From Victivallales bacterium (GTDB taxonomy: Bacteria; Verrucomicrobiota; Lentisphaeria; Victivallales; SZUA-371): a stretch of 64,000 nucleotides of DNA. The notes below the pieces were generated by a model. That model did no database searches. It was given only the letters and a program-made list of their open reading frames with translations, and was not told the origin of the DNA. The stretch is taken from NCBI GenBank assembly GCA_016936495.1, contig JAFGXT010000014.1, positions 27,035 to 91,034 of the forward strand, read 5' to 3'. Positions 13,176 to 61,100 of the stretch are shown in pieces; position 1 is the stretch's first letter; every line of letters starts with the position of its first letter. A program made the translations under genes and the position numbers.

Positions 13176-14633
13176 TCATTTACAGTGGTTGAGGTTCACA
13201 CCGTTTACGGTGGTAACAGCGTTGCGATATCGGCGATATTGAGTCCAGACCGATTCCGGTAGCGTTGCCCCTTGACCATCGACTGATACCGGGATTCCGG
13301 TGGCATGGTCTAGCGGCAATTTCGGTATAAAGCGGCTGTTTAAGTCTCCGTTGCTGTCCGATTGATAACGGGAGAAGTCGGACATCCGGTAGTTCTGACC
13401 GTTAAAGATTATCGCTGGCGCGTTAAAATAGCAATTGTTTTTCAGGATAGTCCGGTCAGAAGTTATTGCAAATACATAATCTTTAAAGTTACCGAGTAGC
13501 GAATTTGTGATTTCCAAAATTCCAGAGGAGTTTTTAGCGAGCGCAGTGAAAAAGCGGCCACCAACGACCGTGCAACGATTCAAGGTAAGCTTGCCGTTGC
13601 GGACAAATGCCACCGACTGCTTGTCATCGCCGACTTTTACCACCGAATTATTCAAGGTCAAGTTGGCTGAACCATGAGCCCAGAGTTGTTCAGCGGGAAC
13701 GTTATCGATAACCAGACAGTCATATAGCGTTGAGCTGGCTTCCGCCGCAGAGAACGCTCCGGCTTCAAACACATTCTCCATCAGAACGCAACGCTTGTAG
13801 ATTACTTGCGACTTGTGTATATTGGCAAATCCGGCACTGCCACAGCGGAGCGCCAGACAATCCTCATAAGTGGCACTGCTCACTCCGTGGCAGGAAAAGC
13901 CCTGACCACAATTGTCTATTGCCACACAGTTGCGATAAACGGTGTTACGGGCAAAGTTAGCGGTATCAAATCCGTCATTCCACGAATGTATCACCGTGAA
14001 ATTTTCAATCCTGGTATGGTCTTTGTGGGTATAAAAGCCGGAATTGGCGGGAAGTTGAATGGTCAATTCGGTTAATGTCTTCCCTTCCGGCAATCTGAAG
14101 TAGACACATTTTTCGGCGCGGCTCCACCAAAAGCTGCCGGGATTCGTTTCCATTTCCTGACGACTCAATGCATTGCGGGCATTTTCTCCGTTGACGAACC
14201 AGATTTTCAGTTTGGGATTCCAGTAGTCCTGGGTTTTGAAATTGCGGTATAGGTTGCTCATCGGCCAGAACGGGAGTTGATAAATCCCTTCGGAAACCTT
14301 AGTCCACTTTTCCACCGGAATTACCGCCAACCCCGATATTGTCGCACCATTGCCATTGATAACCAGCGGTTTATCCGCAGTGCCTCCGACTCCGACGGCA
14401 TACTCCTTGCCCACTGGACCATAGTAGGGACGGGTGTAGGGATTTCCTGGATTAGCAATAACTTCAAGCCGGTCGGACATTCCTAATGCTTTAATGCCCT
14501 TATCCAGTGAGGCAAAGGGTTTTTGAGCTGTTCCGGGATTGCTGTTGGAGCCCTTTAGGTTATCAACGTAAAAAGTATTTGCATTGACCGCGACGGCGGT
14601 TCCGATCAGTAATAGAGATAAAAGATTTTTCAT
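13176..14633 (-). CDS. Secreted right-handed parallel beta-helix repeat protein (DUF1565-like N-terminus; polysaccharide lyase/hydrolase fold)
   Basis: Signal peptide MKNLLSLLLIGTAVAVNA. FYVDNLKGSNSNPGTAQKPFASLDKGI matches the DUF1565-type start of beta-helix proteins. Repetitive N/C/G-rich coils follow. The start overlaps the upstream stop (ATGA, 14630-14633). Confidence 0.7.
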   Translation of the reverse strand: MKNLLSLLLIGTAVAVNANTFYVDNLKGSNSNPGTAQKPFASLDKGIKALGMSDRLEVIANPGNPYTRPYYGPVGKEYAVGVGGTADKPLVINGNGATISGLAVIPVEKWTKVSEGIYQLPFWPMSNLYRNFKTQDYWNPKLKIWFVNGENARNALSRQEMETNPGSFWWSRAEKCVYFRLPEGKTLTELTIQLPANSGFYTHKDHTRIENFTVIHSWNDGFDTANFARNTVYRNCVAIDNCGQGFSCHGVSSATYEDCLALRCGSAGFANIHKSQVIYKRCVLMENVFEAGAFSAAEASSTLYDCLVIDNVPAEQLWAHGSANLTLNNSVVKVGDDKQSVAFVRNGKLTLNRCTVVGGRFFTALAKNSSGILEITNSLLGNFKDYVFAITSDRTILKNNCYFNAPAIIFNGQNYRMSDFSRYQSDSNGDLNSRFIPKLPLDHATGIPVSVDGQGATLPESVWTQYRRYRNAVTTVNGVNLNHCK

Positions 14634-16399
14634 TTATCCATTTCCATATTGTTGTTTTCAATGGTAACATTCTTCGAGCCCGGCGTCGTTATCGCAGCAG
14701 TCGGAACCGCCACCGGATGCGGTCGCCCAAAGGTATTTCCGGAGATAAGGATATTTTCCCCGTTAGTGACGTTGATGATACGCCCGTGAACCCCGTAGCC
14801 GCTATTTTCCGGTGATGGAATCCCGTAATTGTTGAAGATGTTGTTACGGATAACCAGATTGCGAATAATTTTTCCTGATACGGCTTGCGGACGATGATCG
14901 GCACCAAACGCCTCAACTTGAATATTGGTCAACCCGATGTCGTCAAAGCGGTTGTTCTGGATAGTTATGTCAGAGAGGTCGCCAGACTCCAGCCAGAATA
15001 TTTCAGGTCCGAGCAAAATTGCTGGTCCGCGCAAATTCCGGAATCGGCAATTTTCTATGATTGCCGGTGCGCGCAACAGGATGCCCCGGGCTCGATGGTC
15101 GGCAAATTCGCAGTTTACAATTCGGCTTCCAGCTCCGGCAATGGAAAGATTCAGTGCGAGCGCCGGGAGATTTTTACGGTCGAACTCCTTTCCGGTAATT
15201 TCAAGCGTACGCGGTATTTCCGGCAATGTATCTTCTGCGGTAACCTCCCAGACACGCTTGCCTTTCCGGTCAATCCTGCGTAGCGCAGCAACGGAGACGG
15301 AGGTGTATTCTTTTAAATCGCGCCCATCATAAATCGTCAATTTATCTCCTTTCTCATAAGGTAGATTGCTGTCAATTACCATTACTTTTCCGTTGACTGA
15401 ATAGACCGGAGCGGCCATTGTGGAGATATTGATTCCGTCGTCACACATGTTGCGAAAAATGCAGTCGATGATTTGTGGCCCGCGTCGGTTATTTTTCACA
15501 TGAACGCCATCAGCGGCGGTTGAGAGCAGACGACCTTTTTCAGGAACCACCCGGCAAGCAATGAATTTCATTCCGCTACAATTAGTGGCGGAAAATGCGG
15601 CGGACGGACCATTATTGATGGTAACATTCTCAATTGTGCAATCGTTGGAGAACTCATTGTTGAACGCGGTTGAGTTGTTAAACCGGTAAAAGATAACCGC
15701 CGACAGTCCAGGCGTAACTATGGCACCGAACGGCCATTCCGTGATGATTCGATATTGTCCGTCTGGCAATTGTTCCATTGATTTGACTCTGTTTCTGGGG
15801 ATCTTATGTTCGTAAGTGCCATCCGGGCGAAAGAAGATAATATGCAGCGGGCTGAACATCAACGGTTCTTTATCGGCGGAATCCAATTTCAATGTCAGCT
15901 CCGAAGCTCCGGCAGAGCTTACCGTTCCTTGTATTGCCAGCGGCGGGAGATAGCGAATTGTAAAATTACGAAAGGTGCTTTTTCGGCAATGTAACGCCCT
16001 TAGCCCCTTGTGCTGAGGGTTTCCAAACAATAATACAGTATTTACCCCTTCTCCTTCGATAGTTTGTTTTTCAAGCCGTTCGATTACGAGGTTGCCATTA
16101 TTTATTTTTCCGGTTCCGGAAAAGAAATAACTTCCAGCCGGGAGCTTCAATATTGAACCGGGTTCACTGGTTTTCAGCGCGGAAACCGCACGATTAAAGG
16201 CTTTGGTGTCATCGGTCTTACCATCGCCGGTCGCTCCGAAATCACGAACATTGAGTTCTGCGCCCAATGTGGAGGCAGCGAGAAACACTCCGGTCATACT
16301 GATAAACAGTTTGTTGAATTTTAATCTTAGAAAGTTGTTCAAGCCGAAAAAAAGCGACATTTTTTCGAACTTGCTGGTTTGTTGTTTATGTTTTTTCAT
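14630..16399 (-). CDS. Secreted pectate-lyase-superfamily beta-helix protein (Pectate_lyase_3-like N-terminus)
   Basis: LNVRDFGATGDGKTDDTKAFNRAV is the hallmark of Pectate_lyase_3/GH28/GH55-like beta-helix proteins. I prefer the ATG at 16399 (MKKHKQQ...), 12 nt after AAGGAG, over the track start at 16456. Confidence 0.7.
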   Translation of the reverse strand: MKKHKQQTSKFEKMSLFFGLNNFLRLKFNKLFISMTGVFLAASTLGAELNVRDFGATGDGKTDDTKAFNRAVSALKTSEPGSILKLPAGSYFFSGTGKINNGNLVIERLEKQTIEGEGVNTVLLFGNPQHKGLRALHCRKSTFRNFTIRYLPPLAIQGTVSSAGASELTLKLDSADKEPLMFSPLHIIFFRPDGTYEHKIPRNRVKSMEQLPDGQYRIITEWPFGAIVTPGLSAVIFYRFNNSTAFNNEFSNDCTIENVTINNGPSAAFSATNCSGMKFIACRVVPEKGRLLSTAADGVHVKNNRRGPQIIDCIFRNMCDDGINISTMAAPVYSVNGKVMVIDSNLPYEKGDKLTIYDGRDLKEYTSVSVAALRRIDRKGKRVWEVTAEDTLPEIPRTLEITGKEFDRKNLPALALNLSIAGAGSRIVNCEFADHRARGILLRAPAIIENCRFRNLRGPAILLGPEIFWLESGDLSDITIQNNRFDDIGLTNIQVEAFGADHRPQAVSGKIIRNLVIRNNIFNNYGIPSPENSGYGVHGRIINVTNGENILISGNTFGRPHPVAVPTAAITTPGSKNVTIENNNMEMDK

Positions 16400-16483
16400 T
16401 TTATAAGGAATCTCCTTTGAGTAATCACGTAAATGTAAAGATTTTTTTAACAGCATCTAATTTTTTATATTCATTTTTTGATG

Positions 16484-17173
16484 TTAAATCGGATTGACCG
16501 ACTCTTCAAAATCAATACGATAAAGATCAAGAAATTTGCGGCGCGAAACGTGCCCATCAGCCCACAACACATTGAAACCATCGTTATGCCGATTGGTCTG
16601 AACCCTGAAATAACTTCCTCCTCCTTCCTTGCACCATGTTGCTGCTGAAGCATATGGCGTCCAACCAGTGCCGGTCGCGCCGCTGAGCCGGTCGCCCATC
16701 AGGAAAGTTGCGGAACTTTTACGGATACGCGTTGCTTTAGTCTCCGGATAAGCCTGGGTCGAATACTGATCTTTACATGCCATCAGATGCAGACTGCTGG
16801 CATAATCGACATGATCACCGTTATTTTCATTAAGATAACTATTTTGGGTGGAACTGGGACAGTTAAGGATATTATTGGCGCTGGTGGAGAGGAAGATATG
16901 ATTAGGAATCTTATCCCATCCGGCATATTTTGCCAGCGGAGAGTTCCGATGATGCCAGTTGTAGGCATTGTAATAACGCGAAAGCGGCATGTTATCTTGA
17001 TGATCAGTAGAATATTGAATCACGGTCAGACCAATTTGCTTAAGATTGTTGGCACAAGTAATCTGCTTCGCTTTTTCCCGAGCCTGATTCAGCGTCGGAA
17101 GCAACATTCCCGCTAGAATTGCAATAATTGCAATCACAACCAAGAGTTCTATCAGTGTGAAACTCTTTCTCAT
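16484..17173 (-). CDS. Prepilin-type N-terminal domain protein with H-X9-DG motif (pseudopilin-like, DUF1559-type)
   Basis: [27 protein letters not shown]-terminus and C-terminal [12 protein letters not shown] (H-X9-DG). The ATG at 17173 is preceded by GAGGAGAA; the track ORF starts upstream at 17206. Confidence 0.85.
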
Positions 17174-17225
17174 TTTGTTTTCTCCTCTTTCTGATTGATT
17201 TTTCATATATTTATTAATTCATTTT

Positions 17226-18293
17226 TTATTGCGAAATAGTCTCTACCGCTATGGCGGTTGATTCTCTCTCTATGAATTCAGGGTATACAATATGAGTAAG
17301 CCCGTGGAGCTTTTTCTCTTTTAATGCCTGGTCAATGAGGTCAAACGCGCCGTCAGCCATCTTATCAAGAGGTATGACTATAGAGCTCAGCGAGGGTTTG
17401 AACAATGCCGCCGAGATGTTGCCGCCGAATCCCAGCACGCTGAGTTGCTCCGGTACTTTTATATTGAATTCGGACAGAGCGCGCAAAGCTCCCAGAGCAC
17501 TGTAATCACTGGCTACAAACATCGCGGTAAAATCGGCATGGTTGCTTTCCAAATAACGGCTTAACTCGGTAAATGCCTTCATCTGCGAGTTTTCACCGAA
17601 TCTAGTCTTGCAATCTATGACGGTAAGTTCGCCGCCTTCGGCTTTGATTCGGCTGGAATAACCGTCAAAAATCTCATTGCTGGTATAGCTGAATGGTTCA
17701 CTGAGCAGAATAGCCATCTTACGGTGTCCATTTTTTAAAAAATATTCCGCCGCCATAGTTCCGGTAAGGACGTTATGTCCGCCAACGCAGTTAAGTCCGA
17801 GCTGATGCAGTGTTGCACGTATCATAACAATCGGAATTGGCGCGTTTTTCAAAATATTCACCTGAGCCTGAGATAAATCAGAGCGTGAAGGATTTATGAT
17901 GATCGCGTCCGCCTCGCCAAATGGCAGCTGGCTGTAAACGTCTTCTGAATGATGATAGATGATACGGCGATAGTTGTAGTTGCGTTCCTGCGCAATTTTA
18001 TGACATATACGCTCGGTTCTCGATGCTTCGTCAAAATTCCAGTCGTTCATATAATAATACACGGTATACTGTTTTTGTTCGCCGTCTTTACGTACAAATG
18101 TCCCCTTGCCCACCTTGCGGATCAACAGTTTGCGTTCTTCAAGCAGATCCAGCGCCGGGCCTACCGTGAACTGACTTACATTGTATTCCTGCATCAACTG
18201 GCGCACCGATGGAAAGCGTTCCCCGTCTTTCATCTGTCCGATTCTGTCTTTCAACAGTTGAAAAAGTTGCTCTGATTTCGCCAGTTTCAGCAT
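17226..18293 (-). CDS. Transcriptional regulator with GntR-type wHTH fused to a LacI/PBP-type sugar-binding domain
   Basis: N-terminal FPSVRQLMQEYNVSQFTVGPALDLLEERKLLIRKVGKGTFV (GntR wHTH), followed by a periplasmic-binding-protein-like type 1 domain of about 270 aa. Confidence 0.8.
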   Translation of the reverse strand: MLKLAKSEQLFQLLKDRIGQMKDGERFPSVRQLMQEYNVSQFTVGPALDLLEERKLLIRKVGKGTFVRKDGEQKQYTVYYYMNDWNFDEASRTERICHKIAQERNYNYRRIIYHHSEDVYSQLPFGEADAIIINPSRSDLSQAQVNILKNAPIPIVMIRATLHQLGLNCVGGHNVLTGTMAAEYFLKNGHRKMAILLSEPFSYTSNEIFDGYSSRIKAEGGELTVIDCKTRFGENSQMKAFTELSRYLESNHADFTAMFVASDYSALGALRALSEFNIKVPEQLSVLGFGGNISAALFKPSLSSIVIPLDKMADGAFDLIDQALKEKKLHGLTHIVYPEFIERESTAIAVETISQ

Positions 18294-20590: not shown

Positions 20591-20609
20591 AAAAATCCTT
20601 TATTAAAAA

Positions 20610-22088: not shown

Positions 22089-22195
22089 GATAGAACCTCT
22101 CTTTTACAGTGTTAATTTTTATAAAAAGCATCTGGGTATCTTTCTCTGGAACGCTTTTATTTATGCTCCCTTTCATAATGTATGCTTTATGCTTT

Positions 22196-23713: not shown

Positions 23714-23725
23714 ATCCTTATTGTT

Positions 23726-25048: not shown

Positions 25049-25060
25049 GTTAAATTAAAA

Positions 25061-25822: not shown

Positions 25823-26072
25823 ATATCATACCATAGTTGTTTATATGACACTATATATGTGGGAAAAATAAAAGTCAAGGTGTGATGAGAGAAAGCATGA
25901 ATAAAAATGCGGGTTTGATAATGCGACGAGACTGACAGAAAATATATCTGTCAGTCCCGTCTAATGCCTTACTCTTTGCGGACATCAGAGGATAAATATT
26001 GGTTCGCTGAAAAACTATCTACTTTTTCAATTTACATATCCTGAAATGTGAGAACAAATTTATAAATGGGTA

Positions 26073-26101
26073 TTGACTTGTATAAAATGAGGTGCTATAA
26101 T
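26073..26101 (+). promoter_or_regulatory. Near-consensus sigma70-type promoter of cassette 2
   Basis: TTGACT (26073-26078), 17-nt spacer, TATAAT (26096-26101). It is followed by the imperfect palindrome GGTAATTAGTTACC (26105-26118), about 40 nt upstream of the LacI gene. Confidence 0.5.
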
Positions 26102-26140
26102 TAGGGTAATTAGTTACCTTAATTGTTTTGAGAAGGAATT

Positions 26141-27208
26141 ATGAACAAGAGTAAGGCAGTAAACATTCGGGATATAGCCAATGAGGCAGGCGTGTCAGTC
26201 GCCTCGGTATCCCGTGCGTTACAACCAGTCGCCAGTAAAAAGCTGGCGGAAAAAACGCGTAAGCATATTCTGGAAGTATGCGAGCGTATGAATTATCAGC
26301 CGAATGAATTATTCCGGCGGATGAGGAGGCGGCGCGCAAATACAGTGGCATTCATATTTCCTGCGCAGGATACGTCAGTGCATGGCGGTTATGGACATTA
26401 TATGGACTTTAACATGGCGGCAAGTCTCAGCGGAGCCCAGGAGTTTATGGCGACGCACGAAATAGATATTCTTTTACTGGAAGCGACGCCTGCTTTTATT
26501 GCTTCACGGCGTTATTTGAAGATGATCCGGGGACAGTTGCTTGACGGCGTCATTGTCTGGGGCATAACTTATAATGCGGATTATGTCGCGGAAATACTCG
26601 GGGAAAACATCCCTGTGGTAATGCTTCAGACTGAGGATGAAAAGTATAATTGTTCAAAAGTGGTGTCGGACGAATACAAAGCAATGGGAGAACTGGTGAA
26701 CCGGGTGGTGAAAGCCGGGCACCGTCATATCGCAGTACTTAATTCTCCACAGACGTCTTCCGGTGGAGTTCAACGTACAAATGGCGTCAACGCGGCGTTA
26801 CAAGCATGCAGCATCACTCCCGATTATGCTTCGGACAGAAGCGGATATGATTATCAGTTCGGTTATGAAGAGGCGGAACGGATAATCACTGGCGCTTCGC
26901 ATATCACCTGCATAATATGCCCATGCAACGCCGTGGCGTTTGGATGCGTCGCGGCATTGGAAAAACACGGGAAACGTATTCCCGATGATATATCCGTAGC
27001 CGGAGCGGGTGGCATGAATCTGCCCGGCATTACTTATAAGCTGGACAGTTTTTTATATCCCTCGCGTGAAATAGGCCGCAAAGGAGCGGAAATACTGCTC
27101 AAACATATCAACGGCAATCTCACACCGGAAAAAGTCGTTATCCCCACTATCCCCTTTCCCGGAAAGACCATCAGCAACTTAACCCCGCAATTTAAGGAGA
27201 ATCAATAA
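26141..27208 (+). CDS. LacI family transcriptional regulator
   Basis: [23 protein letters not shown] followed by a PBP-type sugar-binding domain. Confidence 0.9.
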
Positions 27209-27210
27209 TC

Positions 27211-27924
27211 ATGAAAAGGCAAACGTCTCAAGCTGGTTGTAACTTTACGCTAATAGAACTCCTCATTGTAATCGCCATTATAGCAATTTTAGCGGCAATG
27301 CTGCTTCCTGCGCTGGGTCGGGCGCGGCAAATGGCATACCAAGCATCTTGTATCAACAACGAAAAACAAATGGGTTCGGCGTTCGCCCAGTATGCCAATG
27401 ATTTTGACGATTTTATTCCGCGGGTGATCTGGCAGGGGACGGCTGCCTCTAGTGGGATGCGCAACTCTTGGGATTGGGTGTTGCGTCCATATATGGCAAA
27501 CAACGACAAGATATTTCATTGTCCACTGGATGTTTTTGGCAAGCGCAGTTCATTTGCGGCAACTCCGCAGTCATATATTATCAATCACCCGGCGTCTAAT
27601 GCCACCAAGCAGGATGTGTTCAGCTATACGCCTCCCGGCAATAAGATCGGAAAAATTCGCAAGCCCAGTCAGGTTACAATGCTGGTCTGCGGGAATAACT
27701 CCAAATATCTGACCCGCTGGGTCGGTTGTGACAATCCCTTTGCCTGGAGTTATGGCTATCTCCATTATGAACCGTATATAAGTACGAGCCGAGGGCACAA
27801 TAACGGAACTAATTTCCTGATGATTGACGGTTCCGCACAAAATCTACGTTTTGGTGATTATGCGTATATGTCCGGCGGAAACGCCTATGCGATATCAAGA
27901 ACCTTATGGCAAATAAATCAATAA
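27211..27924 (+). CDS. Prepilin-type N-terminal domain protein with H-X9-DG motif (pseudopilin-like)
   Basis: [27 protein letters not shown]-terminus and C-terminal [12 protein letters not shown] (H-X9-DG). Starts 2 nt after the lacI stop with an AAGGAG RBS. Confidence 0.85.
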
Positions 27925-27939
27925 ATCAAGGATTAAATC

Positions 27940-29778
27940 ATGTTTCTTTCCAGTTCATGTAAAACATCTGAATTATGGGCGGTGTTCGGATCGATCAATC
28001 GGTGCGAAAAGGTTGAAATCCCCAAAGAGTATGTAATTCCGGAAACGGTAACCGTTGGAGAGCGCCAAATCCAAGTGCGGAAGCTTATAGCGGTTGAGAA
28101 TAAGGTAGACCTCGCGCCGTTTATCGGCGGTTGCGGAGATGGCAAAGGAGCGCTGGTTCTGATCCCGTTGACGGTGGATGATGATGGGGTGTACTCGGTG
28201 GGGCTGGGCGCGGATTGGTGGTTTGAAGCGTATATTGATGGTAATGCGCTGTTGAGTTCGCCACGAACAGGCAATGAAATCTGGCCGCCGTCAATTTGCG
28301 ACTTCCGTGCTGACCTTGAATTAAAGAAGGGGGAGCATCTTCTGGCAATACGTTTCACCAGCGGTACAGGCGGAGCCACTTTGTGCGTCGCAGTAGGAAC
28401 TGCCGCCGAACTGACGGAATATGTTGCTGAACAGCGGCATATCAAACGTGAAGAAATAAGTTCTACGGTAGATTTTTCAGTCAACATGGGAAAGATCAAC
28501 CCATTGCACGGAGTTAACAACGGCCCGGTTACCTATAACAGTTTGATAGACGTCAGTGACAACTACCGTGAGTTGGGGGTTCCCTGGGTACGCCTTCATG
28601 ATTCCAATTATCCGCATCCGCGCGAGGTGGACATTCCACAGATTTTTCCGAATGAGGACGCCGATCCCACCGACCCATCCAATTATGATTTCCGGCGAAC
28701 CGACACCTATATTAAAAACATTATTGACACCGGGGCGAAGATCGTTTACCGCCTGGGGGTGAGCATTGAGCACGCGGCAATCAAATATTACACCCATCCG
28801 CCAAAGGATTTCAAACGCTGGGCGCAGGTGTGCGTCGGGATTATCAAACATTACAATCATGGCTGGGCCAACGGTTTTCATTATAATATCACCCACTGGG
28901 AAATCTGGAATGAACCGGAAGGTGATTCAATGTGGACAGGGACTCAGGAACAGTATTTCGAGCTTTACCGGGAGGCGTCGCTGGCAATCAAGGAATTCGA
29001 TCCAACAGTAAAGGTGGGCGGGTTCGCGGTTACCACTCCCAAGGTTCCTATGGTCAAGGACTTTCTGGCATACTGCCGCGACAAGAGTCTGCCGCTGGAT
29101 TTCTTTTCCTGGCATTGTTACGGCAAGAACCCGAAAAAAATGGTCGATTGCGCCGGGCTGGTGCAGGAGCTTCTTGCCCAGTATGGTTATTCCGCCGTCG
29201 AAAGTCATATGAATGAGTGGAATCTGTGGCCGGGATGGCATTTCGGCAAAGGACAGGCTGGCTTGCGTAAAGAATGTTTTGAGCGGCTGAAGAACGAGAT
29301 CGGCGCGTCCTTCTGTGTTTCCGTCCTTATCCGTCTTCAGGACAAGGATATTGACGTGGCGAACTATTACGACGGGCAACCGCGTTGCACCAATTTTTGC
29401 GGATTGTTCGATTTTTACGGGGTTCCGCAGAAAACCTACTACGGCTTTCTGGCTTTCAGTCGTCTGACGGCGTATCCCGAACGTGTGGCTGCCATCGGCA
29501 AAGATGGCGTGGATATTCTTGCGGCGATTAACCGGGAAAGGAAACAGGCGGCGGTTTTGCTGTCGAAATTCGGCGGTGAATCCTGGCTGGAACAGCCGGT
29601 GTTCTTCAAGAATCTGCCATCGGAAATCGACAGTTATGAACTGGTGATGGTTGACCGCGACCGCAATCTTGAAACTGTCAGCCGCGGTATGATTGGCAGA
29701 GAACAAGAGGTCGTGATCGCGTTCCGGGAACATTCCGTGGCGTTGCTGCGTCTGTTCAGTTCGGAAAACAACAAATGA
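27940..29778 (+). CDS. Glycoside hydrolase, GH39-like TIM barrel with an N-terminal beta-sandwich; no signal peptide
   Basis: ITHWEIWNEPEGDSMW and YFELYREASLAIKEFDPTVKVGGFA resemble the GH39 acid/base region. The first 150 aa or so look like a beta-sandwich. The family assignment was not checked against a database. Confidence 0.6.
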   Translation: MFLSSSCKTSELWAVFGSINRCEKVEIPKEYVIPETVTVGERQIQVRKLIAVENKVDLAPFIGGCGDGKGALVLIPLTVDDDGVYSVGLGADWWFEAYIDGNALLSSPRTGNEIWPPSICDFRADLELKKGEHLLAIRFTSGTGGATLCVAVGTAAELTEYVAEQRHIKREEISSTVDFSVNMGKINPLHGVNNGPVTYNSLIDVSDNYRELGVPWVRLHDSNYPHPREVDIPQIFPNEDADPTDPSNYDFRRTDTYIKNIIDTGAKIVYRLGVSIEHAAIKYYTHPPKDFKRWAQVCVGIIKHYNHGWANGFHYNITHWEIWNEPEGDSMWTGTQEQYFELYREASLAIKEFDPTVKVGGFAVTTPKVPMVKDFLAYCRDKSLPLDFFSWHCYGKNPKKMVDCAGLVQELLAQYGYSAVESHMNEWNLWPGWHFGKGQAGLRKECFERLKNEIGASFCVSVLIRLQDKDIDVANYYDGQPRCTNFCGLFDFYGVPQKTYYGFLAFSRLTAYPERVAAIGKDGVDILAAINRERKQAAVLLSKFGGESWLEQPVFFKNLPSEIDSYELVMVDRDRNLETVSRGMIGREQEVVIAFREHSVALLRLFSSENNK

Positions 29779-29826
29779 GTTTGTCGCATTTGCTTGTTGT
29801 AAGGTTTTGAATTCAAAATAAAAGGA

Positions 29827-32800
29827 GTGGGTATGTTTTTAAGGTTTGGAAAGAGTTGGGTTCTAATGCTTGTGCTGCTGCTGTGCAGTGCGGCGTTCGC
29901 GAATGAGGTAAAAATTATAACACCGGATATCAAGGGGGCGGGCTTGCCGGCGGAGATTGTTCGTCCTAAACAATGGAAAAACGCGCCGTGGAAAGTCGAT
30001 GACGGGGTTTTGCGTTCACCAGATTACAGCACCAGTGGTATGAGCGGGTTTGAGATCGGCAGCCCGGATTGGAATGACTATGAGGTTGACTTTAAACTTC
30101 GGCGTCTGGGAGCTCACCCGAAAGATCAGCATTGGGGGATTAGCTTGAGGAAAGGGGTAAGCATTTACACCCGTGGTAACAAGTGGATAATCAATATGCC
30201 GGAACGTAAGATTCACATGACATTCGGCAAACCCTTTCCGGCGCTTCAGGTTGGAGCCGATGCTCCGTGGACGGATTTCAATATTTCCGTAAAGGGCAAT
30301 TCTCTGACAGTCAAGGTGAATGGTGAAACCGTGGCGAGCCGCGATGATCTTCCCGAGGGAAGCGGACATTTCTCATTCTACACCTTCAGGAATTATCTTG
30401 AAATGAAGGACATTTCCATCCGGGTTTACAAGAGTGGGAACAATACGGAAAAGGTCAATTCCCCGAATATCGCGCTGAACGCCAGTTTTGAGGAATGTAC
30501 CCTGGGTAAACTTCCCGATTATTGGGGTGTAAGGCATTGGGGTATTGATGACCCGGAAATAATTTTGCATCATGAGGCGTGGCTCAAGACTTTCGGTACG
30601 GACGATACTCAGGCATGGCACGGTAAGCGCAGCATGAGACTTGAAAATACAACCGACGTGCCAGTAAGCGATTCCCGTAGAATGTGGTCATGCAATTTCG
30701 GCACGAAAGTCGGTTCCACTTATACTTTATCGGCATACATGAAAGCGGATCGTCCGGGGGTAAAGGTGGGCTTGTCTGCTTCCCCGTACCCGGAAGGTCG
30801 TAAGTTGGAGAAGATTGTTACGTTGACTCAGGATTGGCAGCGTTATGAGTATACCTATACCCGGACACGTAATTCTCTTTATACGGACATGATGTATTTT
30901 AAACTTCAGAATAAGGGTGCGATATGGGTCGATGCCATCCAGTTGGAACTGGGGGAAAAGGCGACGCCGTTTCAACTTGCCAACGCCGACGCGCGCCTGA
31001 CTGTTCATGAGGGGAATGTGGAAAAGGCTCTTTATGAAGTACCTGTACATCAGCTCCCTTTGCTGAAGGAAGCTCCCCGCATGGATGGCACGCTGAATGA
31101 CCAGTTGTGGTCAAAGGTTCCGGCGCTGGAGCTTAAATCTGTCTACGGTAAAGAGATAAAGGAAAAAGCTACGGCAAAGATTTTCTACACCATTGACTGC
31201 ATTTACGTTGGATTCGACGCGCAGGAAGCTAATTCCGATAAGATAAGCTGTTCCAAACAGAAGCATGATGATTATGTCTGGATTGATCCGTCATTTGAAA
31301 TTTTCATTGACTCAAAACTGACGCGCGGAACTTATCACCATCTAGTGTTCAATGCCGACGGGGTCAAATACGATTCCAATCTCGGCAACTCGGCGTGGAA
31401 TGGCGACTGGCAGGTGAAAACCGCCCGCAAAAAGGACAACTCCGGCTGGACCGCCGAGATGTTTATTCCTTTCAGTGGTATGGGGATTGATTTTAATAAC
31501 GGCGACCGCTGGGGATTTAATATATGCCGCAACAATCCGCGTTCCTCTGAGATTTCAAGCTGGGCTCCCACCTATGGACGCTTTCATGAACCTTTGCGTT
31601 TCGGACAACTGGTCATTGATGAAGCCGTACAAAAGAACTATATAGCGGGAATCCGTAATCTTACGCTGAAATATGCAGGTCGGGATAAGAACGAGTTGTC
31701 GGCGGAAGTATTTAACAACACCGGAAGGGGCATTGAAGCCATACTTGCCTGCCGTATAAGCCCGGTGCAAGGCGGAAGCCCATTGTCTTTTGAAAAGAAA
31801 ATCACGCTTCCTGACCGGAGAACATCAAAGGTGATCCTAGGCATTGTCCCCGGCAAACCTTCGGACAGCTTCACGGCGGCAATGACGCTGAAAGAGAGCT
31901 CCCGCGTGATCGTATCCGCTACAGAGACCGTTTCCGGCGGGAACATCCTGTGTGCGATTCCGCAATTTGATTATTGCACGACGGAAAAGCATATGCCGGT
32001 TCAAGTCCGTACGGAACTTAACCCGGAACAACTCAAAACCCTGACTTTGGAAACCACTGTTTCCAACGGACAAAAAGAAGTTTACCGCAATTCCGCCAGA
32101 CTGACGGACGGAATGCAGGAAAAACAGCTCCCGGTGGGGGAGTGGGCGCTGGGTGACTACAAACTGGTCTGCCGTCTGTTGGATGACTCCGGCGAAATCG
32201 CTAAATCCGAAAGCTCTTTCCAGAAACTCGCGCCTTCATCGCACGAGGTGAAGCTTGACCGTTTCCGCCGGATCACGCTGGTCAACGGCAAGCCTTTTTT
32301 CCCGCTTGGCATTTTCTGGGAAGGACGTACCACTCCCGCCGTAGTTGAGCTTCTGGCGAAAGGCAATGTCAACACGATTCATTTTTATGGAACTCCCACT
32401 GATGAGATATTGGAGACCGGGCGCAAGCACGGCGTGATGTTCCAACTTGATGTCCATGCTCGGAAAGGCAAGGCTCTGGAGACTATCGGCAAATGGAAAC
32501 ATCATCCGGCGATACTTTCATGGTATACTTATGACGAAGCGTTCACCACCGAATGGGGAAGAAAGAATCTGGCGGGAATCCGCAAGACTATCGCAGACGG
32601 GCAGGCGCTTGATCCCTATCGACCCGTGGTGATGCTGGAAAATATCTACGGAATGAATTATCTGATGGACAAGGGAATGGATTTCCCCGGCAAAATACCG
32701 ACACTGGACTACTATGCGTATCCGCCATCGGCGAATGTCCAGTTGTGGGATAATTATTCAAAGGCGATTATGAAATTCGGCAAACAGGATGGACGCCCGG

Positions 32801-33270
32801 CCTGGGCGGTGCCACTTATGTCCGGCTATGCCTTTCACTCCAGCCGGGACATGTCCCCGGCGGAACTTGAATATCAGGTGTATATCTGTGCCATCAACGG
32901 TATTCGCGGGATTCTGTTCTGGGCTGGATATCCGAAAGCGCCGGGAACTTTTGCCAAAATCAGTTCTCTATTCGGGGAAATACAACAGTTGGTCGAGCCG
33001 CTGATTTCTCTGGAACAGACGCCGGAAGTACAATGTAATTCTGCGGATGTCAAATTTACAATTAAAAGGTACAATGGAGCAATGTATCTGATCACCGTCA
33101 ACGAATCAAAAAAAGAGGTTCAAGCCCGCTTTGATCTCTCCGCGCTCGGCAACGTGAAAATGGCTGAAGTGCTATTTGAAAACCGGAATACTCCAGTTAT
33201 TCAGAGTCGCCTGCAAGATAAATACAAAGGGCTTGAGCGACATGTTTATTTATTGAAAAGTAATCAATAA
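29827..33270 (+). CDS. Secreted 1147-aa multidomain carbohydrate-active protein (DUF1080 + CBM4/9-like + CBM9-like + C-terminal TIM-barrel-like domain)
   Basis: Signal peptide ...LLLCSAAFANE. DUF1080-like WKVDDGVLRS...FRNYLEMKDISIR. CBM9/DOMON-like MDGTLNDQLWSKVPAL...YHHLVFNADG...GWTAEMFIPF. The C-terminal block ITLVNGKPFFPLGIFWEG is typical of glycosidase barrels. Confidence 0.65.
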   Translation: MGMFLRFGKSWVLMLVLLLCSAAFANEVKIITPDIKGAGLPAEIVRPKQWKNAPWKVDDGVLRSPDYSTSGMSGFEIGSPDWNDYEVDFKLRRLGAHPKDQHWGISLRKGVSIYTRGNKWIINMPERKIHMTFGKPFPALQVGADAPWTDFNISVKGNSLTVKVNGETVASRDDLPEGSGHFSFYTFRNYLEMKDISIRVYKSGNNTEKVNSPNIALNASFEECTLGKLPDYWGVRHWGIDDPEIILHHEAWLKTFGTDDTQAWHGKRSMRLENTTDVPVSDSRRMWSCNFGTKVGSTYTLSAYMKADRPGVKVGLSASPYPEGRKLEKIVTLTQDWQRYEYTYTRTRNSLYTDMMYFKLQNKGAIWVDAIQLELGEKATPFQLANADARLTVHEGNVEKALYEVPVHQLPLLKEAPRMDGTLNDQLWSKVPALELKSVYGKEIKEKATAKIFYTIDCIYVGFDAQEANSDKISCSKQKHDDYVWIDPSFEIFIDSKLTRGTYHHLVFNADGVKYDSNLGNSAWNGDWQVKTARKKDNSGWTAEMFIPFSGMGIDFNNGDRWGFNICRNNPRSSEISSWAPTYGRFHEPLRFGQLVIDEAVQKNYIAGIRNLTLKYAGRDKNELSAEVFNNTGRGIEAILACRISPVQGGSPLSFEKKITLPDRRTSKVILGIVPGKPSDSFTAAMTLKESSRVIVSATETVSGGNILCAIPQFDYCTTEKHMPVQVRTELNPEQLKTLTLETTVSNGQKEVYRNSARLTDGMQEKQLPVGEWALGDYKLVCRLLDDSGEIAKSESSFQKLAPSSHEVKLDRFRRITLVNGKPFFPLGIFWEGRTTPAVVELLAKGNVNTIHFYGTPTDEILETGRKHGVMFQLDVHARKGKALETIGKWKHHPAILSWYTYDEAFTTEWGRKNLAGIRKTIADGQALDPYRPVVMLENIYGMNYLMDKGMDFPGKIPTLDYYAYPPSANVQLWDNYSKAIMKFGKQDGRPAWAVPLMSGYAFHSSRDMSPAELEYQVYICAINGIRGILFWAGYPKAPGTFAKISSLFGEIQQLVEPLISLEQTPEVQCNSADVKFTIKRYNGAMYLITVNESKKEVQARFDLSALGNVKMAEVLFENRNTPVIQSRLQDKYKGLERHVYLLKSNQ

Positions 33271-33296
33271 TCAGCAATATATTGGGGCTGAAACCG

Positions 33297-33348
33297 ACAG
33301 TGTCTGTATGCATATCAGAAAAAGATAGCATTCAGACACTGTTTTTTT
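33297..33348 (+). terminator. Intrinsic terminator with a long loop after cassette 2
   Basis: acagtgtctg (33297-33306) pairs with cagacactgt (33333-33342) and is followed by a T7 run. Confidence 0.55.
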
Positions 33349-33390
33349 ATAGAAAGATAATAGTATGAGAATGACTGGAATATAGTAAGC

Positions 33391-40741: not shown

Positions 40742-40846
40742 TTACTAATATAATATTTTTTTAGCAGAAGTTTAATATGAGACCGGGAAATTCCGTGCGG
40801 ATTGCAGTCTGTCGGCGGATACGGTTTACGGGGGGATACGATTAGT

Positions 40847-45088: not shown

Positions 45089-45261
45089 TAATATTTTAGT
45101 GAAAAATTAGTACAAATATAATATTTAAAGGTGGTTTTATTCACTTTTGAATCTATATTACACTGATATGGACTTATTTGGCTGTTTTTGCCCGAAAGTC
45201 CGGGGGTGTAAAAGTTTAAGGGGAGTGCTCTCCCGTAAAATAGTAAAAAAGGGGAAAAATT

Positions 45262-48393: not shown

Positions 48394-48399
48394 ATTATG

Positions 48400-48437
48400 A
48401 TGCCCGGAGCTTCCAGCTCCGGGCATTTTGAATTTTT
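48400..48437 (+). terminator. Intrinsic terminator after glgP
   Basis: Perfect 12-bp stem atgcccggagct/agctccgggcat with a 3-nt loop (48400-48426), followed by tttgaattttt. Confidence 0.75.
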
Positions 48438-55786: not shown

Positions 55787-55815
55787 TTGACATATGCCGG
55801 ATAGTCAGGTACAAT
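55787..55815 (+). promoter_or_regulatory. Near-consensus sigma70-type promoter of cassette 3
   Basis: TTGACA (55787-55792), 17-nt spacer, TACAAT (55810-55815). Confidence 0.5.
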
Positions 55816-55858: not shown

Positions 55859-56845
55859 ATGGTATCAATGGATGATGTTGCAGCAAGAGCGAAAGTCTCA
55901 AAAGCGACGGTATCGCGAGTGCTTAACGGTAGGACTGGAGTATCCGACACGGTGTGTAAGCGGGTATTGGAAATCTGTCGCGAACTCAATTATACGATTA
56001 ATCATAATATTCAGGATCTGGTACTCAAGGGGCGCAACGGAACCACGCGCAATATCGCCATGGTACTGGTGGGGCGTGATTTTTCCGATCCGGCCTATGC
56101 CGCGCTGATGGATGGAGTAGCAGAGGGAATTCAACGTTTCAACTATAATCTGACGCTGGTAAAGCTTGATGGCGGCGAGCGTGATGTTTATGATTTGCCT
56201 CCAATGTTACGGGATGGGCGTGCCGATGGGATGCTGGTTTCCGGGGAGCTCAAGCCTGAACATTTGGAATTGTTCCGACAGATGGCAATGGAGACGATAG
56301 TGATTGGCAGTTATACTCCAGCATTGCTCAAGGGCTTAGGTTGTGTAGAGATTAATTTTCAAAAACGCGCCTTTGAAATTGTGGAAGCGGCACTCAAACA
56401 TGGCTGCCGCAGATTAGCGTTGTTTGAAGAAAATCCCGGCAATTATTCCGCCGAACTTTTCCTGCGCTTTATTGCTCAGGCCGCCGCGGAGTACGAGTTG
56501 GATTTTAACGAGCAGAATTATTACACCGGTACCGGAGCGTATAGTGGTGCCCGTGAATCGTTATTACCGGTGTTTCGCCAGGAACAATTGCCATTCGACT
56601 GTATGATATGCACGGATTATCGTACCGCGACAGAGATTTCTGCTATACTTTCCGCTCGATACGGTTTTGATGCGAAGCCGGATATGCTTATCATAACCAC
56701 TTCACCATATAGGCATTTCAGTTTATCCACTCCTGCCGTTTATCTTGATTGCGGCAGTCATGAACTGGCATTGACCAGCGTAACTCAGTTGGTCGGACGT
56801 TTACAGAGTAAGGATCGGCATCCTCAGGTTCTGATTCAGGTTTAA
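55859..56845 (+). CDS. LacI family transcriptional regulator
   Basis: SMDDVAARAKVSKATVSRVLNG HTH plus a PBP-type effector domain. Confidence 0.9.
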   Translation: MVSMDDVAARAKVSKATVSRVLNGRTGVSDTVCKRVLEICRELNYTINHNIQDLVLKGRNGTTRNIAMVLVGRDFSDPAYAALMDGVAEGIQRFNYNLTLVKLDGGERDVYDLPPMLRDGRADGMLVSGELKPEHLELFRQMAMETIVIGSYTPALLKGLGCVEINFQKRAFEIVEAALKHGCRRLALFEENPGNYSAELFLRFIAQAAAEYELDFNEQNYYTGTGAYSGARESLLPVFRQEQLPFDCMICTDYRTATEISAILSARYGFDAKPDMLIITTSPYRHFSLSTPAVYLDCGSHELALTSVTQLVGRLQSKDRHPQVLIQV

Positions 56846-56872: not shown

Positions 56873-57367
56873 ATGTACAAGACAATCCTCAGCTTATTGA
56901 CGCTCATCGCGATCATCACCGGCTTACAGGCGGGTAAAAAACAATTTATCCATTTTAACGCCAGTCAGATACAACGCCAGGCAAACAGTAAATATTGCGT
57001 TGTCGACAGTGTGAACAATACCATCACCATCTCCGGTGGCGCTCCCGAGGCGCAAGCCTCATGGCAGCACCTTGTCCTACCGTTTCCGTTCAAACCCGCA
57101 GCGGGCAAGATTTTCATCATCAGCGGGGGAATGCGTGCTTTCGATATGAGTGGCGCATTCAGAGTCGCTGCCAGACTGATTGACGCTTCCGGCAAATCCA
57201 TCTCATACGAAGGTGTTGTTATAAATAAAAATCAGGATTGGACGCCTTTTTCGAAGGAATTCACCGTTTCGGACAAAGTCGCCAAACTGGAACTGTATCT
57301 GATCGGTGTCAAACTCGGTTCAAGCAGCAAAGTTGAACTCAGAAAATTTGCGGTAGAAGAAAAATAA
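56873..57367 (+). CDS. Small secreted or anchored beta-sandwich (CBM-like) protein
   Basis: N-terminal hydrophobic leader [20 protein letters not shown]. The remaining ~140 aa have a beta-strand-rich pattern ending in [24 protein letters not shown], as in CBM4/22-like modules. No family was verified. Confidence 0.5.
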
Positions 57368-57381: not shown

Positions 57382-58092
57382 ATGCATTATAAGAAAACAG
57401 CATATTTTACGCTTATAGAGCTCTTAGTTGTGATTGCTATTATTGCAATTCTGGCTGGCATACTGCTCCCGGCGTTGAATATAGCAAGACTCAAGGCCAA
57501 AAGTATAAATTGCACCAATAATCTCAAACAGCTTGGTGTATCTTGGAACATGTATATAAATGATTATCAGAGATATCTTCCACAGCATGTAGCGACAAAC
57601 CCGTCAACCCTGTCATGGGGGTACATATTTTTCAATCAGGACTATATTTCGCTAAAATCCATGTATTGCGATCAGACGGAGATTTGTGCCAACAACGGCG
57701 GCTGGTACAAAAAATTTCTTGGATCATCCCGGAATGATGCCTCGAACGCATTCCATTTTCAATATGTAAGCTACGGCTACAATACTATTGGCATAGGCGA
57801 TGACTGGTATGGGAACGGCGGCAACAGAAATGATCCGCCAAAACCTGCCATTCCCGGCAAGATCATGATGCCGTCGTCAAAGATTTTATTGACGGAAACT
57901 ATTATGAGTGGAGCTGCCAGACCATATCATATCATAGATCAGGGAAATGCCTTGCTGGATCTTCGTCATCAATCTACCGCCAATTATTTGTGGGTTGATG
58001 GAAGGGTTAGTGCTGAACGCTTTACCTATTTAGAGCTACAAATGAATACAGACAATCGCAAGCGATATTTTCACCCATATTCTACATATTAA
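57382..58092 (+). CDS. Prepilin-type N-terminal domain protein with H-X9-DG motif (pseudopilin-like)
   Basis: [27 protein letters not shown]-terminus and C-terminal [12 protein letters not shown] (H-X9-DG). RBS AGGAGAGG. Confidence 0.85.
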
Positions 58093-58108: not shown

Positions 58109-61100
58109 ATGAAATCACAAAAATTAATGGTATTTGCATGCCTTTTTATGTTTATGGGCATGAAGCAGGTTTATGGAGAGAATTTACTTTCTGACCCCTC
58201 AATTCGTTGGGGAAATCGGGTGCGCAACGGAGCGGATGCCACAGTTGGAGCTGTTATTAACGGAACGATTGAAAGCGAAAGACGCAACCGTAGCGGCGAA
58301 GTAATGATCCTCAATGAAAATTATCTCTCTCTGACACCGGGAAAATATTATCAAGTGGAAGTGGAAGCAGCCGCTGCCACTCAAAAACAGAGTGTGGCTT
58401 TGATGTTGCAAATGCCAGGTAGTAAGCGTCGTCCTTTTCCAATTACAAACATTACATTGGCGGCTGGGGAGAAAACCCGCATAACAATGAATTTCCACGC
58501 GAATGAAGATGAAAAATCTCTGCGTATACATATTATTCATCTGGATCCGGGCAAATTGCTTATCAGTCAGATACAATGCGGGGAAATCTCTGAAGCAACA
58601 TATATGGAACGGAGAAAAGGAACAACGCTTACCAGCTGGAAATGCTCAGGAGATTCTTTAGGAAAAATTTTCAAAGCGTTCAACGCGCTTGATTCCGGAA
58701 TCAAAGAAGGAATTCTGGAAGCAAAGGTATTGCCCTATGGCAATGGATTCATCGCCAACAACGTAGCGTGGGCGGCTTCGAAAATAGAGACGGTGGAAGT
58801 AACTTTCCGTGCTTTCGATGAAGGAGGACACTTGTATTTCAACTTTAAATGTGTTGATGACGGCAAAGAGTTAAGCTCCTTCATGACTGCCGCCATGCCT
58901 GCGGACGGCAAATTTCATACTATAAGATTTAATGTGGCACAAGACAAAGCCTGGCGCGGACAAGTAAAAGAACTTAAACTCTCATGGCATAATCTCTACA
59001 ATCCGTGTCGCATATCTTTGGCTTCAATCGAAGCGAAAAGCTTTGACAATCTGATTGTTAACGCAGATCGGCTCAAACCTGGGACCTCAAACTTTGTCGA
59101 TCTCATAAAGCCCAGAGGCAACTATTTACTGGAATGGAAAGGTCAAAGTAATCCCGGCATTCGTCTGGAACTGCTTGATCGCAGGCATGATGTCATTGAA
59201 ACTATAGAGTTGCCAAAGAATGAAATGCAGCGCAAATTTTCTGCGCCGGAGCTGACCGTCAATGCCAGACTTTCCATTGGCATCGATGGCAGCGGCATTC
59301 CAGTTCTGAAACTCCTTGAGCTTCCTCCCGTCAACCGCAATGACTCCTCATGGAAAGCTAAATGGATATGGAGCAGAAATGGTTCTGGACCAAATAATAC
59401 CACCGTCTGGTTCCGTCGCGAGTTCAAACTGGCCGATACTCCGGTCAACGCATCTTTGTTGGCTACCGGCGACGACAGTATGGAGGCCATTATCAATGGC
59501 AAGTACATTAACGTCTCCTCCGCTTGGGATATTCCGGGACTTATTGATATTAGCAAACTGCTCAAGACCGGCAACAATGAAGTAATTCTGAAAGTCCACA
59601 ACCATCAGGCATGGGGCGGAGCGATCGCAGAACTATATATTAATTCAAAGAATGACAAAGACATCTGGATATTGACCGATGAATCATGGAAATGCGCGGA
59701 AGGCAGCAAGCAGCCCGCGCTTATCGACAAAGACGTGCATGTAATCGGATCGGTTCCGGCCATGCCCTGGGGTAATCGACTTGGATACCAGTATATCGGC
59801 CCTAAAGTGCAGGTGTCTATGCTTGAATCCAGCCACCAGAACTTTACGCTTGATGTTATACAAGTTCCCGTCGGACTGTTCTCGGATAAACTTGGAATGC
59901 GGCTTGTCATGCCGGATGGTTCCTCACGGCAGACGCAAGCCATAATCCGTCCCCCCCTAAGTGAATGGAAGCCGGGCAGAATTACCGTTGCCTACACGCT
60001 CCCTCCTCAAAGCGCCAAGCACAGCGGGGAAGCCATGATGTATATAGAATCCCCTATGGTGAAAGTTGTCAATCAGCTTCCGGCAGGGAAAATAAGCATT
60101 GGGAAAAGCGGACGTAAAGAACTCGCTTACGCCGCCATGACCGGCGCTGGATCGCGTCCCTGGTTTGTCATCAACGGAGAGAAAATCCCGCCGATTTACT
60201 ATGATCTTCCCGGCAATTTCATCACCGGTCCGGAACAACGTGATTTTCTGGTGCGCAACGCCGTCTCGGGCGGACATCGCGTAATCAGGATGGCTCATAA
60301 CGTTTATGATATCTGGAAAGCTCCGGGACGCTATGATTTCAGTTCAATCGACAAGGCAATGGAAACTATTGTTCTAAATGCTCCAGACGCTTATGTCCTG
60401 ATGGTTTCAGCCACATATATGCCGCGCTGGTGGCTGGAGAAAAATCCCGATGAAGCCGTAAAATTTCATGGAGGAGAAGCGCTGAGCCGGGGAGATGACT
60501 TTCAGACTATATCATCCAGAAAATGGCTTGATGAATTACGAGTATTCTATTCTAAACTGTTCGAACATATAAGAAAGTCCTCCTATGCGGGAAAAATAAT
60601 CGGTCTAGCGCCGACCGATGGCAGTACCTGGGAGTGGATGTGGAGTCATGGACGCGGGCATAGTAAACGCGTATACAGCGGCTGGGCGCCTGCGGACATC
60701 AACGCCTATCGCGCTTTTCTCCGCAAGAAGTACAAAACCGATGAGCAACTGGCAAGAGCCTGGAATCGTCCGGATCTGCGCTTCGAAAAGGTACTGCCCC
60801 CGACTCCAGAGCGTATCGATCAGGCATCGGTCGTTGACATGCTTGATCCATCAAAAGATATGGACATAATTGATTACTCCATTGCACGCAATGAAATACT
60901 TTCCGACTCCTTCATCGCGATATGCAAAATGATTAAGGACAATTCAAACAATCAATGGCTTGCCGGATCATATTACGGCTATATGGTAATGTTCAGTTTT
61001 ATGTCTTTCTATCTTCAGGACGGCGGTCATATGCGCATCAGTAAAATAGCCCGCTCGCCATATGTGGATTTTGTCTATGGCCCGACAGTATATCATTGGC

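Follow-up and report, generated by a model that had tools for sequence, protein, structure and literature searches.

Pilin genes have been linked to the degradation of polysaccharides in several bacteria, as illustrated by CbpC/GP25 of Ruminococcus albus, by a type IV pilus (T4P) locus of Caldicellulosiruptor residing beside a glucan-degradation locus and by the chitin-regulated pilus of Vibrio. These systems are single canonical pili equipped with their own machinery, unlike the many operon-embedded paralogues that are the subject of this study. In a 64,000-nucleotide stretch of a metagenome-assembled genome (MAG) of a Victivallales bacterium (Lentisphaerota), to which we refer as the window, three genes coding for pilin-like proteins with a C-terminal H-X9-DG motif are each embedded in a compact cassette together with a sugar-type regulator and carbohydrate-active enzymes (CAZymes). 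Our analysis is centred on the second cassette, whose pilin-like protein carries the accession MBN2640181.1 and is encoded on a MAG contig of 94 kb.

Within the superphylum, the closest functional parallel is the type IV-like pilus of the Akkermansiaceae locus MUL2, where a pilin-like protein is needed for the use of glycans (PMC13174399, PMC12418764). MUL2 differs, however, in being one conserved locus with an archaeal-type pilin-like protein and a PilM-like partner, and it is not repeated operon by operon beside a variety of CAZymes together with sugar-type regulators. The general organization of the cassettes also resembles the polysaccharide utilization loci of Bacteroidota, which co-localize a regulator, a binding or accessory protein and CAZymes for each substrate and which are found in many copies per genome, although a profile search of the three cassettes detected neither susC-like TonB-dependent transporter nor susD-like domains. 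At the protein level, the closest group is the H-X9-DG or DUF1559 family (TIGR04294, PF07596) of Planctomycetota, Verrucomicrobiota and Lentisphaerota, whose members share the N-terminal FTLIELL... helix, a pair of cysteines and the H-X9-DG motif at the C-terminus. This family encompasses 54,025 clusters at 50% identity (E ≤ 1e-10), with 68 paralogues in Planctopirus limnophila, two of which are essential (PMC10632474), 74 in Rhodopirellula baltica (PMC2754498) and 91 in Tuwongella immobilis, 25 of which were detected in membrane fractions (PMC8567305). As already claimed in an initial inspection of the DNA (the sequence-only reading), no function has been established for the family in the literature searched, including the three studies just cited. 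What distinguishes the Lentisphaerota genes from their relatives is their incorporation into operons of regulators and CAZymes and the loss of the glycine preceding the cleavage site (position -1).

Three operons of related layout and their recurrence

The window contains three tight same-strand cassettes with gaps of 2-27 nt, apart from the 48 nt ahead of the 1147-aa gene in cassette 2, each preceded by a promoter-like site of its own. In cassette 2, the gene coordinates and order proposed from inspection were exactly reproduced by the calling of open reading frames (ORFs):

26073..26101, forward strand: promoter-like site TTGACT-17-TATAAT with an upstream TG (11 of 12 consensus matches, the best of the region)
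26105..26118, strand not assigned: weak candidate operator, imperfect palindrome GGTAA-TTAG-TTACC (found by eye; arms of only 5 bp; low confidence)
26141..27208, forward strand: LacI-family regulator, 355 aa (LacI helix-turn-helix (HTH) 4.9e-12; Peripla_BP_1, Peripla_BP_3 and Peripla_BP_4)
27211..27924, forward strand: H-X9-DG/DUF1559 pilin-like protein, 237 aa (profile matches, conservation and models)
27940..29778, forward strand: glycoside hydrolase 39 (GH39)-like enzyme, 612 aa, N-terminus not signal-peptide-like (PF01229, 3.6e-20)
29827..33270, forward strand: secreted multidomain enzyme, 1147 aa, predicted signal peptide ending ...AFA/NE (profile matches)
33296..33350, forward strand: predicted intrinsic terminator, long hairpin (33296-33343) followed by U7 (RNA folding)

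The gaps between these genes amount to 2, 15 and 48 nt and each gene is preceded by a plausible ribosome-binding site, which is AAGGAG in case of the pilin-like gene that starts 2 nt after the regulator. The distance from the promoter-like site, which is as close to consensus as had been stated, to the start of the regulator is 40 nt. The candidate operator is located just 3' of the -10 hexamer, and a repeat finder run at this promoter reported nothing. At the distal end, the folding of the stretch 33271-33360 yields -30 kcal/mol (z = -5.4), a stability that was reached by none of 200 shuffled sequences, and the proposed terminator thus holds, although a simple terminator scan had missed the hairpin because of its long loop. 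The description of the GH39-like enzyme as leaderless was equally upheld, its best solved relative being PDB entry 5z3k (2e-42), with GH39 beta-xylosidases following near 1e-17. The large enzyme had been portrayed as a secreted combination of DUF1080, a carbohydrate-binding module (CBM) and a barrel, of which the signal peptide, the 3keto-disac_hyd/DUF1080-like domain (2e-6) and CBM9 (7.5e-12) were recovered, together with a weak CBM_4_9 match (4e-4) below its cutoff. The barrel is plausible but not established, the C-terminal third showing a single weak match to a GH2 beta-glucuronidase (0.0018). With its HTH and Peripla_BP regulator, promoter, co-directional genes, short gaps and terminator, cassette 2 fits a LacI-regulated catabolic operon and it is a self-contained unit that is probably inducible by its substrate.

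The two other cassettes comprise the following features:

18368-18340, reverse strand: cassette 1 promoter-like site (promoter scan)
17226..18293, reverse strand: cassette 1 regulator with GntR HTH and Peripla_BP_3 (profile match)
16484..17206, reverse strand: cassette 1 H-X9-DG pilin-like protein, 240 aa (PF07596 35.4 bits; N_methyl 33.2; TIGR04294 23.2)
13176..16456, reverse strand: cassette 1 enzymes, a 608-aa beta-helix/rhamnogalacturonase-like protein and a 485-aa secreted beta-helix protein overlapping by 4 nt (ORFs, profiles)
55787..55815, forward strand: cassette 3 promoter-like site TTGACA-17-TACAAT (11 of 12 matches)
55859..56845, forward strand: cassette 3 LacI-HTH regulator, 328 aa (LacI HTH 1.6e-15)
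56873..57367, forward strand: cassette 3 extra ORF, 164 aa, signal-peptide-like N-terminus, no family match (profile scan)
57382..58092, forward strand: cassette 3 H-X9-DG pilin-like protein, 236 aa (profiles)
58109..62227, forward strand: cassette 3 secreted GH42-like enzyme, 1372 aa (Glyco_hydro_42 6e-6; named beta-galactosidase by NCBI)

While all three cassettes exist as predicted, their supposed identity of order applies with two amendments. The cassette 1 regulator contains a GntR rather than a LacI HTH, and the pilin-like gene follows within 2-50 nt of the regulator in cassettes 1 and 2 but not in cassette 3, where the 164-aa ORF intervenes. A gene of equal length and position is present in a relative of this locus (L093:3760-4254), whose large enzyme is 78% identical. 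The cassette 3 regulator groups with the other regulators in a Jackhmmer search. Concerning the absence of secretion or pilus machinery, the claim was sustained in that a profile scan of 28 ORFs of the window detected no ATPase, platform, secretin or prepilin peptidase domain of type II secretion systems (T2SS) or T4P, about 15 further ORFs of the window (the riboflavin/ftsY, glycogen and 35-38 kb clusters) having been judged from their N-terminal sequence alone. The same search detected neither a transporter nor a secretin in the cassettes. From their spacing, the pilin-like genes are apparently part of tight, co-transcribed units.

The generality of this arrangement was investigated in a sample containing one genome per species, which provided 80 loci with relatives of the pilin-like gene (29 from Lentisphaerota, 5 unclassified and 46 from other phyla, among which Verrucomicrobiota and Planctomycetota predominate), in all of which ORFs were called. 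Upstream controls were 120 genes of the same loci at a distance of at least three genes. In a Pfam search, a Peripla_BP_3 domain was assigned to the same-strand upstream neighbour in 10 of 47 cases, compared to 2 of 120 controls (Fisher p = 6e-5), and nine of these ten neighbours also contain a GntR HTH. Nine of the ten loci belong to Lentisphaerota and one to an unclassified MAG. Such a regulator directly precedes 9 of 32 pilin-like genes of Lentisphaerota and is part of the same gene run in 13 of 32, whereas in the other phyla both counts are 0 of 40. On the opposite side, the gene directly downstream in Lentisphaerota codes for at least 500 residues in 20 of 27 cases and, as judged by a simple heuristic, for a signal-peptide-like N-terminus in 16 of 27, compared to 24 of 172 controls (p = 1e-6). 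Carbohydrate-active domains were identified in nine of the ten downstream proteins tested, among them rhamnogalacturonase-like beta-helix, CBM4_9, CBM9, GH123_N, DUF4838, GH67_N, heparinase II/III and F5/8-type C domains, and no homology was found among the recurrent downstream proteins of about 610-630 residues. Of the enrichments that the sequence-only reading had suggested as a check, that of regulators is found in the 80-locus sample, with the association with large signal-peptide proteins being at least as strong as that with glycans. All of three homologues chosen by similarity alone have a regulator and further genes, with recognizable CAZyme domains in two of them:

L086: LacI regulator, pilin-like gene (overlapping the regulator by 4 nt), 626-aa protein without Pfam match
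second homologue: IclR regulator, pilin-like gene, GH5 enzyme, 609-aa protein
third homologue: pilin-like gene, 624-aa protein, GH28 enzyme, ADP-ribosyl-GH, LacI regulator

In Planctomycetota and Verrucomicrobiota, the gene after the pilin-like gene often codes for a 130-200-residue protein with a lipobox-like N-terminus (L053, L071, L034, L061 and L016). L053 and L071, as well as L034 and L061, are homologous pairs, and the arrangement may amount to a separate two-gene module of these phyla.

Since the family is dense in this region, with three genes in 64 kb, and CAZymes and sulfatases are abundant around it, the neighbourhood of regulators, pilin-like genes and enzymes might merely reflect the frequency of each. 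Such coincidence is extremely improbable in light of the enrichment against non-adjacent genes of the same loci (p = 6e-5 and p = 1e-6), of the fixed orientation and spacing and of a synteny that is kept at 37-78% enzyme identity, and we reject chance adjacency on the basis of these neighbourhood statistics. The operon design is recurrent, non-random and lineage-specific, being found in Lentisphaerota but not in the sampled loci of Verrucomicrobiota and Planctomycetota, and it very likely constitutes a real and conserved functional unit.

Family and predicted structure of the pilin-like protein

The sequence of the cassette 2 pilin-like protein scores above the cutoffs of PF07596/DUF1559 (28.6 bits, cutoff 23.3), which assigns it to the family, of TIGR04294 for the H-X9-DG motif (19.2 bits, cutoff 19) and of TIGR02532 (21.3 bits, cutoff 16.3), whose match begins at the phenylalanine and leaves the glycine of the cleavage site uncovered. 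With 20.5 bits, it stays just under the cutoff of the N_methyl model PF07963 (21.2). Across the three window genes the scores are near or above the curated cutoffs, the cassette 1 protein reaching 21.9 bits with TIGR02532 (cutoff 16.3) and the cassette 3 protein staying slightly under the PF07596 cutoff (21.0 compared to 23.3 bits). In an alignment of 81 sequences, F12, E16, P33, C47 and C104 (cassette 2 numbering) are invariant. The first three correspond to F1, E5 and P22 of the mature protein and the latter two to the conserved cysteine pair. Y122, N125, H196, D206 and G207 are conserved in at least 90% of the sequences, with the H196...D206-G207 residues defining the H-X9-DG motif, whereas the loops of the head domain vary in sequence and length around this conserved core.

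A confident AlphaFold model of the full-length protein (with a predicted local distance difference test score, pLDDT, of 81 and a predicted template modelling score, pTM, of 0.81) shows a 51-residue N-terminal helix (residues 14-64), two short helices and a small four-stranded sheet, with the H-X9-DG motif spanning the final beta-hairpin. The head modelled alone is predicted with higher scores (pLDDT 88, pTM 0.87). A comparison of the full model to the PDB by Foldseek returned the pilin 1ay2 by its N-terminal helix as sole match (E = 0.41) and nothing at E < 0.4. In a sequence search of the PDB, matches to pilins were likewise confined to the region of the N-terminal helix, the longest reaching residue 86. 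The Pfam name SBP_bac_10 would suggest a solute-binding protein, an assignment that we reject, as the models contain a long helix and a small sheet but no periplasmic-binding-protein fold.

In comparison with pseudopilins of the GspG-K type and type IV pilins, the protein shares F1, E5, P22, a hydrophobic helix of roughly 50 residues at the N-terminus and, in the model, a small beta-sheet head. It differs in the missing -1 glycine, in its poor match to the GspG model, in a head without solved counterpart and in the location of its gene, which is found in a catabolic operon instead of beside the machinery. In the N-terminal segment, the window paralogues match at 24-28 of 32 amino acids, while their third-codon positions are identical at 13-19 of 32. 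Since the amino acids are kept despite diverged third-codon positions, the helix appears to be under purifying selection, and the same divergence leads us to reject gene conversion as source of its conservation, which exceeds the needs of a plain membrane anchor.

A direct connection to a secretion machine is provided by an Omnitrophota locus (L035:217-6787, JAMWCZ010000009.1), where three T2SSE genes and one T2SSF gene are directly followed by an H-X9-DG/DUF1559 gene (5436-6089) and by a T2SSG-like gene (6077-6787). By its residence within a machinery operon, this member ties the family to a machine of the T2SS/T4P type, and we infer that the window proteins are pilin- or pseudopilin-type subunits that would use a comparable machine encoded elsewhere.

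Proposed coupling to enzymes and competing explanations

The conserved core of these operons consists of the pilin-like gene and a large secreted enzyme, whose pairing is frequent but not obligatory. Outside its own lineage, the cassette 2 pilin-like protein is most similar to P0004 (50% identity) and P0008 (41% identity), and in both cases the very next gene codes for a relative of the 1147-aa enzyme (phmmer 1e-245 and 1e-233), with regulators of the AraC or GntR type and no intervening GH39 gene. Approached from the enzyme, relatives at 70% and 53% identity have an H-X9-DG gene directly upstream and, in total, a pilin-like gene directly precedes relatives of 37-70% identity in four other genomes, where regulators and accessory enzymes differ. 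For the 1372-aa enzyme of cassette 3, the 78% identical relative retains the full layout including the 164-aa ORF, and a relative of 49% identity (on the P0289 contig) is accompanied by a LacI gene followed by a 231-aa gene that is probably pilin-like.

With a probability of about 40%, we regard the pilin-like protein as a pseudopilin specific to its operon, which would connect a common secretion or pilus machine with the export or display of the enzyme of that operon. Large folded enzymes in a diderm cell would need a route for their export across the outer membrane. In the proposed mechanism, the invariant F1/E5/P22 helix would insert the protein into the inner membrane, where it might engage a machine of the type II secretion or T4P-like kind encoded elsewhere. 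Being made only together with the large exported enzyme of its operon, the protein would link the shared machine to that enzyme, either by priming or extending a pseudopilus that drives the folded enzyme through the outer membrane, or by holding it on a short surface fibre, whereas the leaderless enzyme would complete the breakdown of imported fragments in the cytoplasm. Export or display is favoured because the partner found most consistently across phyla is an exported protein and not a glycan, as also reflected in planctomycetes, where family genes neighbour genes with signal peptides (PMC8567305), because no other means of crossing the outer membrane is encoded in the cassettes and because the Omnitrophota relative is part of a machinery operon.

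Several observations weigh against this mechanism. The designation as pseudopilin, as introduced in the sequence-only reading, is uncertain, being in line with F1, E5, P22 and the helix but not with the residue preceding F1, which is N, S and Y in the window genes (27211-27246; 17162-17206 on the reverse strand; 57382-57408) and which thus departs from class III signal peptides with their Gly, or rarely Ala, at -1. Among Lentisphaerota, 3 of 39 members have Gly at this position and the others S, N, K, R, T, I, Y, D, V or further residues, compared to Gly or Ala in 45 of 48 members from other phyla (loci L002-L090). Substrates of PilD and PulO require Gly at -1, with Ala being partly tolerated. 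The missing glycine therefore renders canonical processing by a prepilin peptidase, and hence assembly, doubtful. Further reservations concern the head (pLDDT 88), for which Foldseek found nothing at E < 4 in the PDB and no solved pilin or pseudopilin, and the gene directly following the pilin-like gene, whose product is not obviously secreted in cassettes 1 and 2. Moreover, no pilin-like gene adjoins a 35% identical homologue of the 1147-aa enzyme (L091) or a 45% identical relative of the 1372-aa enzyme (L092), which leads to the rejection of an obligate pairing. Finally, when loci L082, L085, L089 and L090 are compared to window positions 27211-33270, the enzymes of L089 are 70% identical and the pilin heads 30%, which is the level of paralogues, whereas in L082 the corresponding values are 40% and 50%. 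Co-evolution of both proteins is unsupported in these data (Pearson r = -0.17 for five pairs). The discordant identities imply that partners have been reshuffled and they argue against a strict one-to-one recognition pair. Together with the loci lacking an adjoining pilin-like gene, they also weaken the initial view of the protein as substrate-specific module.

The pattern at -1 points to an altered or absent prepilin processing in Lentisphaerota, which would contain either a peptidase of relaxed specificity or proteins that stay unprocessed. In the latter case, the protein might not be a fibre subunit at all but a bitopic protein of the inner membrane, whose periplasmic domain serves as operon-specific escort, tether or sensor for the enzyme or its products. 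The restriction of the glycine loss to Lentisphaerota would be in line with this proposal, as would the recovery of planctomycete relatives in membrane fractions (PMC8567305) and the tight and in part translational coupling to the regulator, with a gap of 2 nt in cassette 2 and an overlap of 4 nt in L086, which suggests modest, regulator-like expression. In contrast, F1, E5 and P22 show no variation, the helix is conserved well beyond what a mere anchor would require in spite of its diverged synonymous sites, and with L035 one member of the family resides in a T2SS/T4P machinery operon, so that we consider this explanation unlikely.

The absent co-evolution of both partners could also be accounted for if each operon supplied its own copy of a generic protein resembling a major pseudopilin, such that the secretion capacity scales with the cargo and the diversity of heads reflects drift instead of specificity. 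The dispensability of the pilin-like gene in some homologous loci and the freedom of loops to vary around a conserved core would both be compatible with such a role. Yet the family, with its many thousands of clusters, is extremely large and diverse, dosage alone can hardly account for the cost of hundreds of copies per genome, and the match to the GspG model TIGR01710, restricted to the N-terminal helix, scores far below its cutoff (26.3 compared to 88.85 bits) and does not identify the protein as GspG. A generic supply of pseudopilin is in our view quite improbable.

A different role would place the glycan and not the enzyme at the centre, with the protein serving a retractile pilus or pseudopilus as the subunit that binds the target polysaccharide of the operon at the cell surface and pulls it to or through the outer membrane in analogy to SusD. 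This proposal would conform with the presumed co-regulation of each pilin-like gene with enzymes for one kind of glycan and with the highly variable loops of the head, it has a precedent in the superphylum in MUL2, whose pilus was proposed to attach to fucose-rich glycans (PMC13174399), and the discordance between pilin and enzyme would be easier to reconcile with a glycan as ligand. However, the head model shows neither a recognizable carbohydrate-binding fold nor a solved match in the PDB, the cassettes lack a transporter and a secretin, members from other phyla have small lipoproteins and further exported products as partners instead of CAZymes (PMC8567305), and the missing glycine would equally affect the assembly of this fibre. 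We view the capture or import of glycans as less probable, though as the leading alternative, and retain the coupling of a shared machine to enzyme export or display as working model.

Surrounding genes and biological significance

Besides the three cassettes, the window harbours the following features:

18465-25822, reverse strand: sulfatase operon between cassettes 1 and 2, with an IclR regulator, three sulfatases with leaderless-looking N-termini, a TauE/SafE exporter and a radical SAM/SPASM protein that resembles anaerobic sulfatase maturases and ends in a C-terminal SEC-C motif
25925-25961: inverted repeat with 15-nt arms (93% complementary), a 7-nt loop and no T-run, in the divergent IclR/LacI intergenic region
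38203-40650: 815-aa fusion of a Na+/H+ exchanger membrane domain with a C-terminal phosphotransferase system (PTS) EIIA-2 domain
40802-53463: glycogen-metabolism cluster, with a 1428-aa protein in which an alpha-amylase catalytic domain is fused to the debranching domains GDE_N and GDE_C, and a DUF1015 protein

The inverted repeat could be the binding site of a regulator.

Collectively, our analysis describes a family of operons where a regulator, a pilin-like protein and large enzymes are combined in a manner that, like the loss of the -1 glycine, we did not find described in the literature searched, with most papers in subscription journals being outside its reach. The inducible-looking small operons of Lentisphaerota offer a testable context for one of the largest protein families without an assigned function, and with Victivallis vadensis a cultivable relative is available for experiments. 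The missing glycine points to an unrecognized variant of prepilin processing. As a tentative generalization, the H-X9-DG/DUF1559 proteins might serve as exchangeable operon-encoded adaptors of one shared T2SS/T4P-like nanomachine in bacteria of the Planctomycetes-Verrucomicrobia-Chlamydiae (PVC) group, each linking it to one exported enzyme or polymer. Lentisphaerota would have added a sugar-sensing repressor for each adaptor and the acceptance of any residue at -1, implying a new specificity of the peptidase or a new mode of assembly. If true, the adaptor function would account for the expansion of the family to hundreds of copies per genome and would explain how PVC-group bacteria, which in guts and oceans play a major part in breaking down sulfated and complex glycans, organize the degradation of polymers without SusC/D or type IX secretion.

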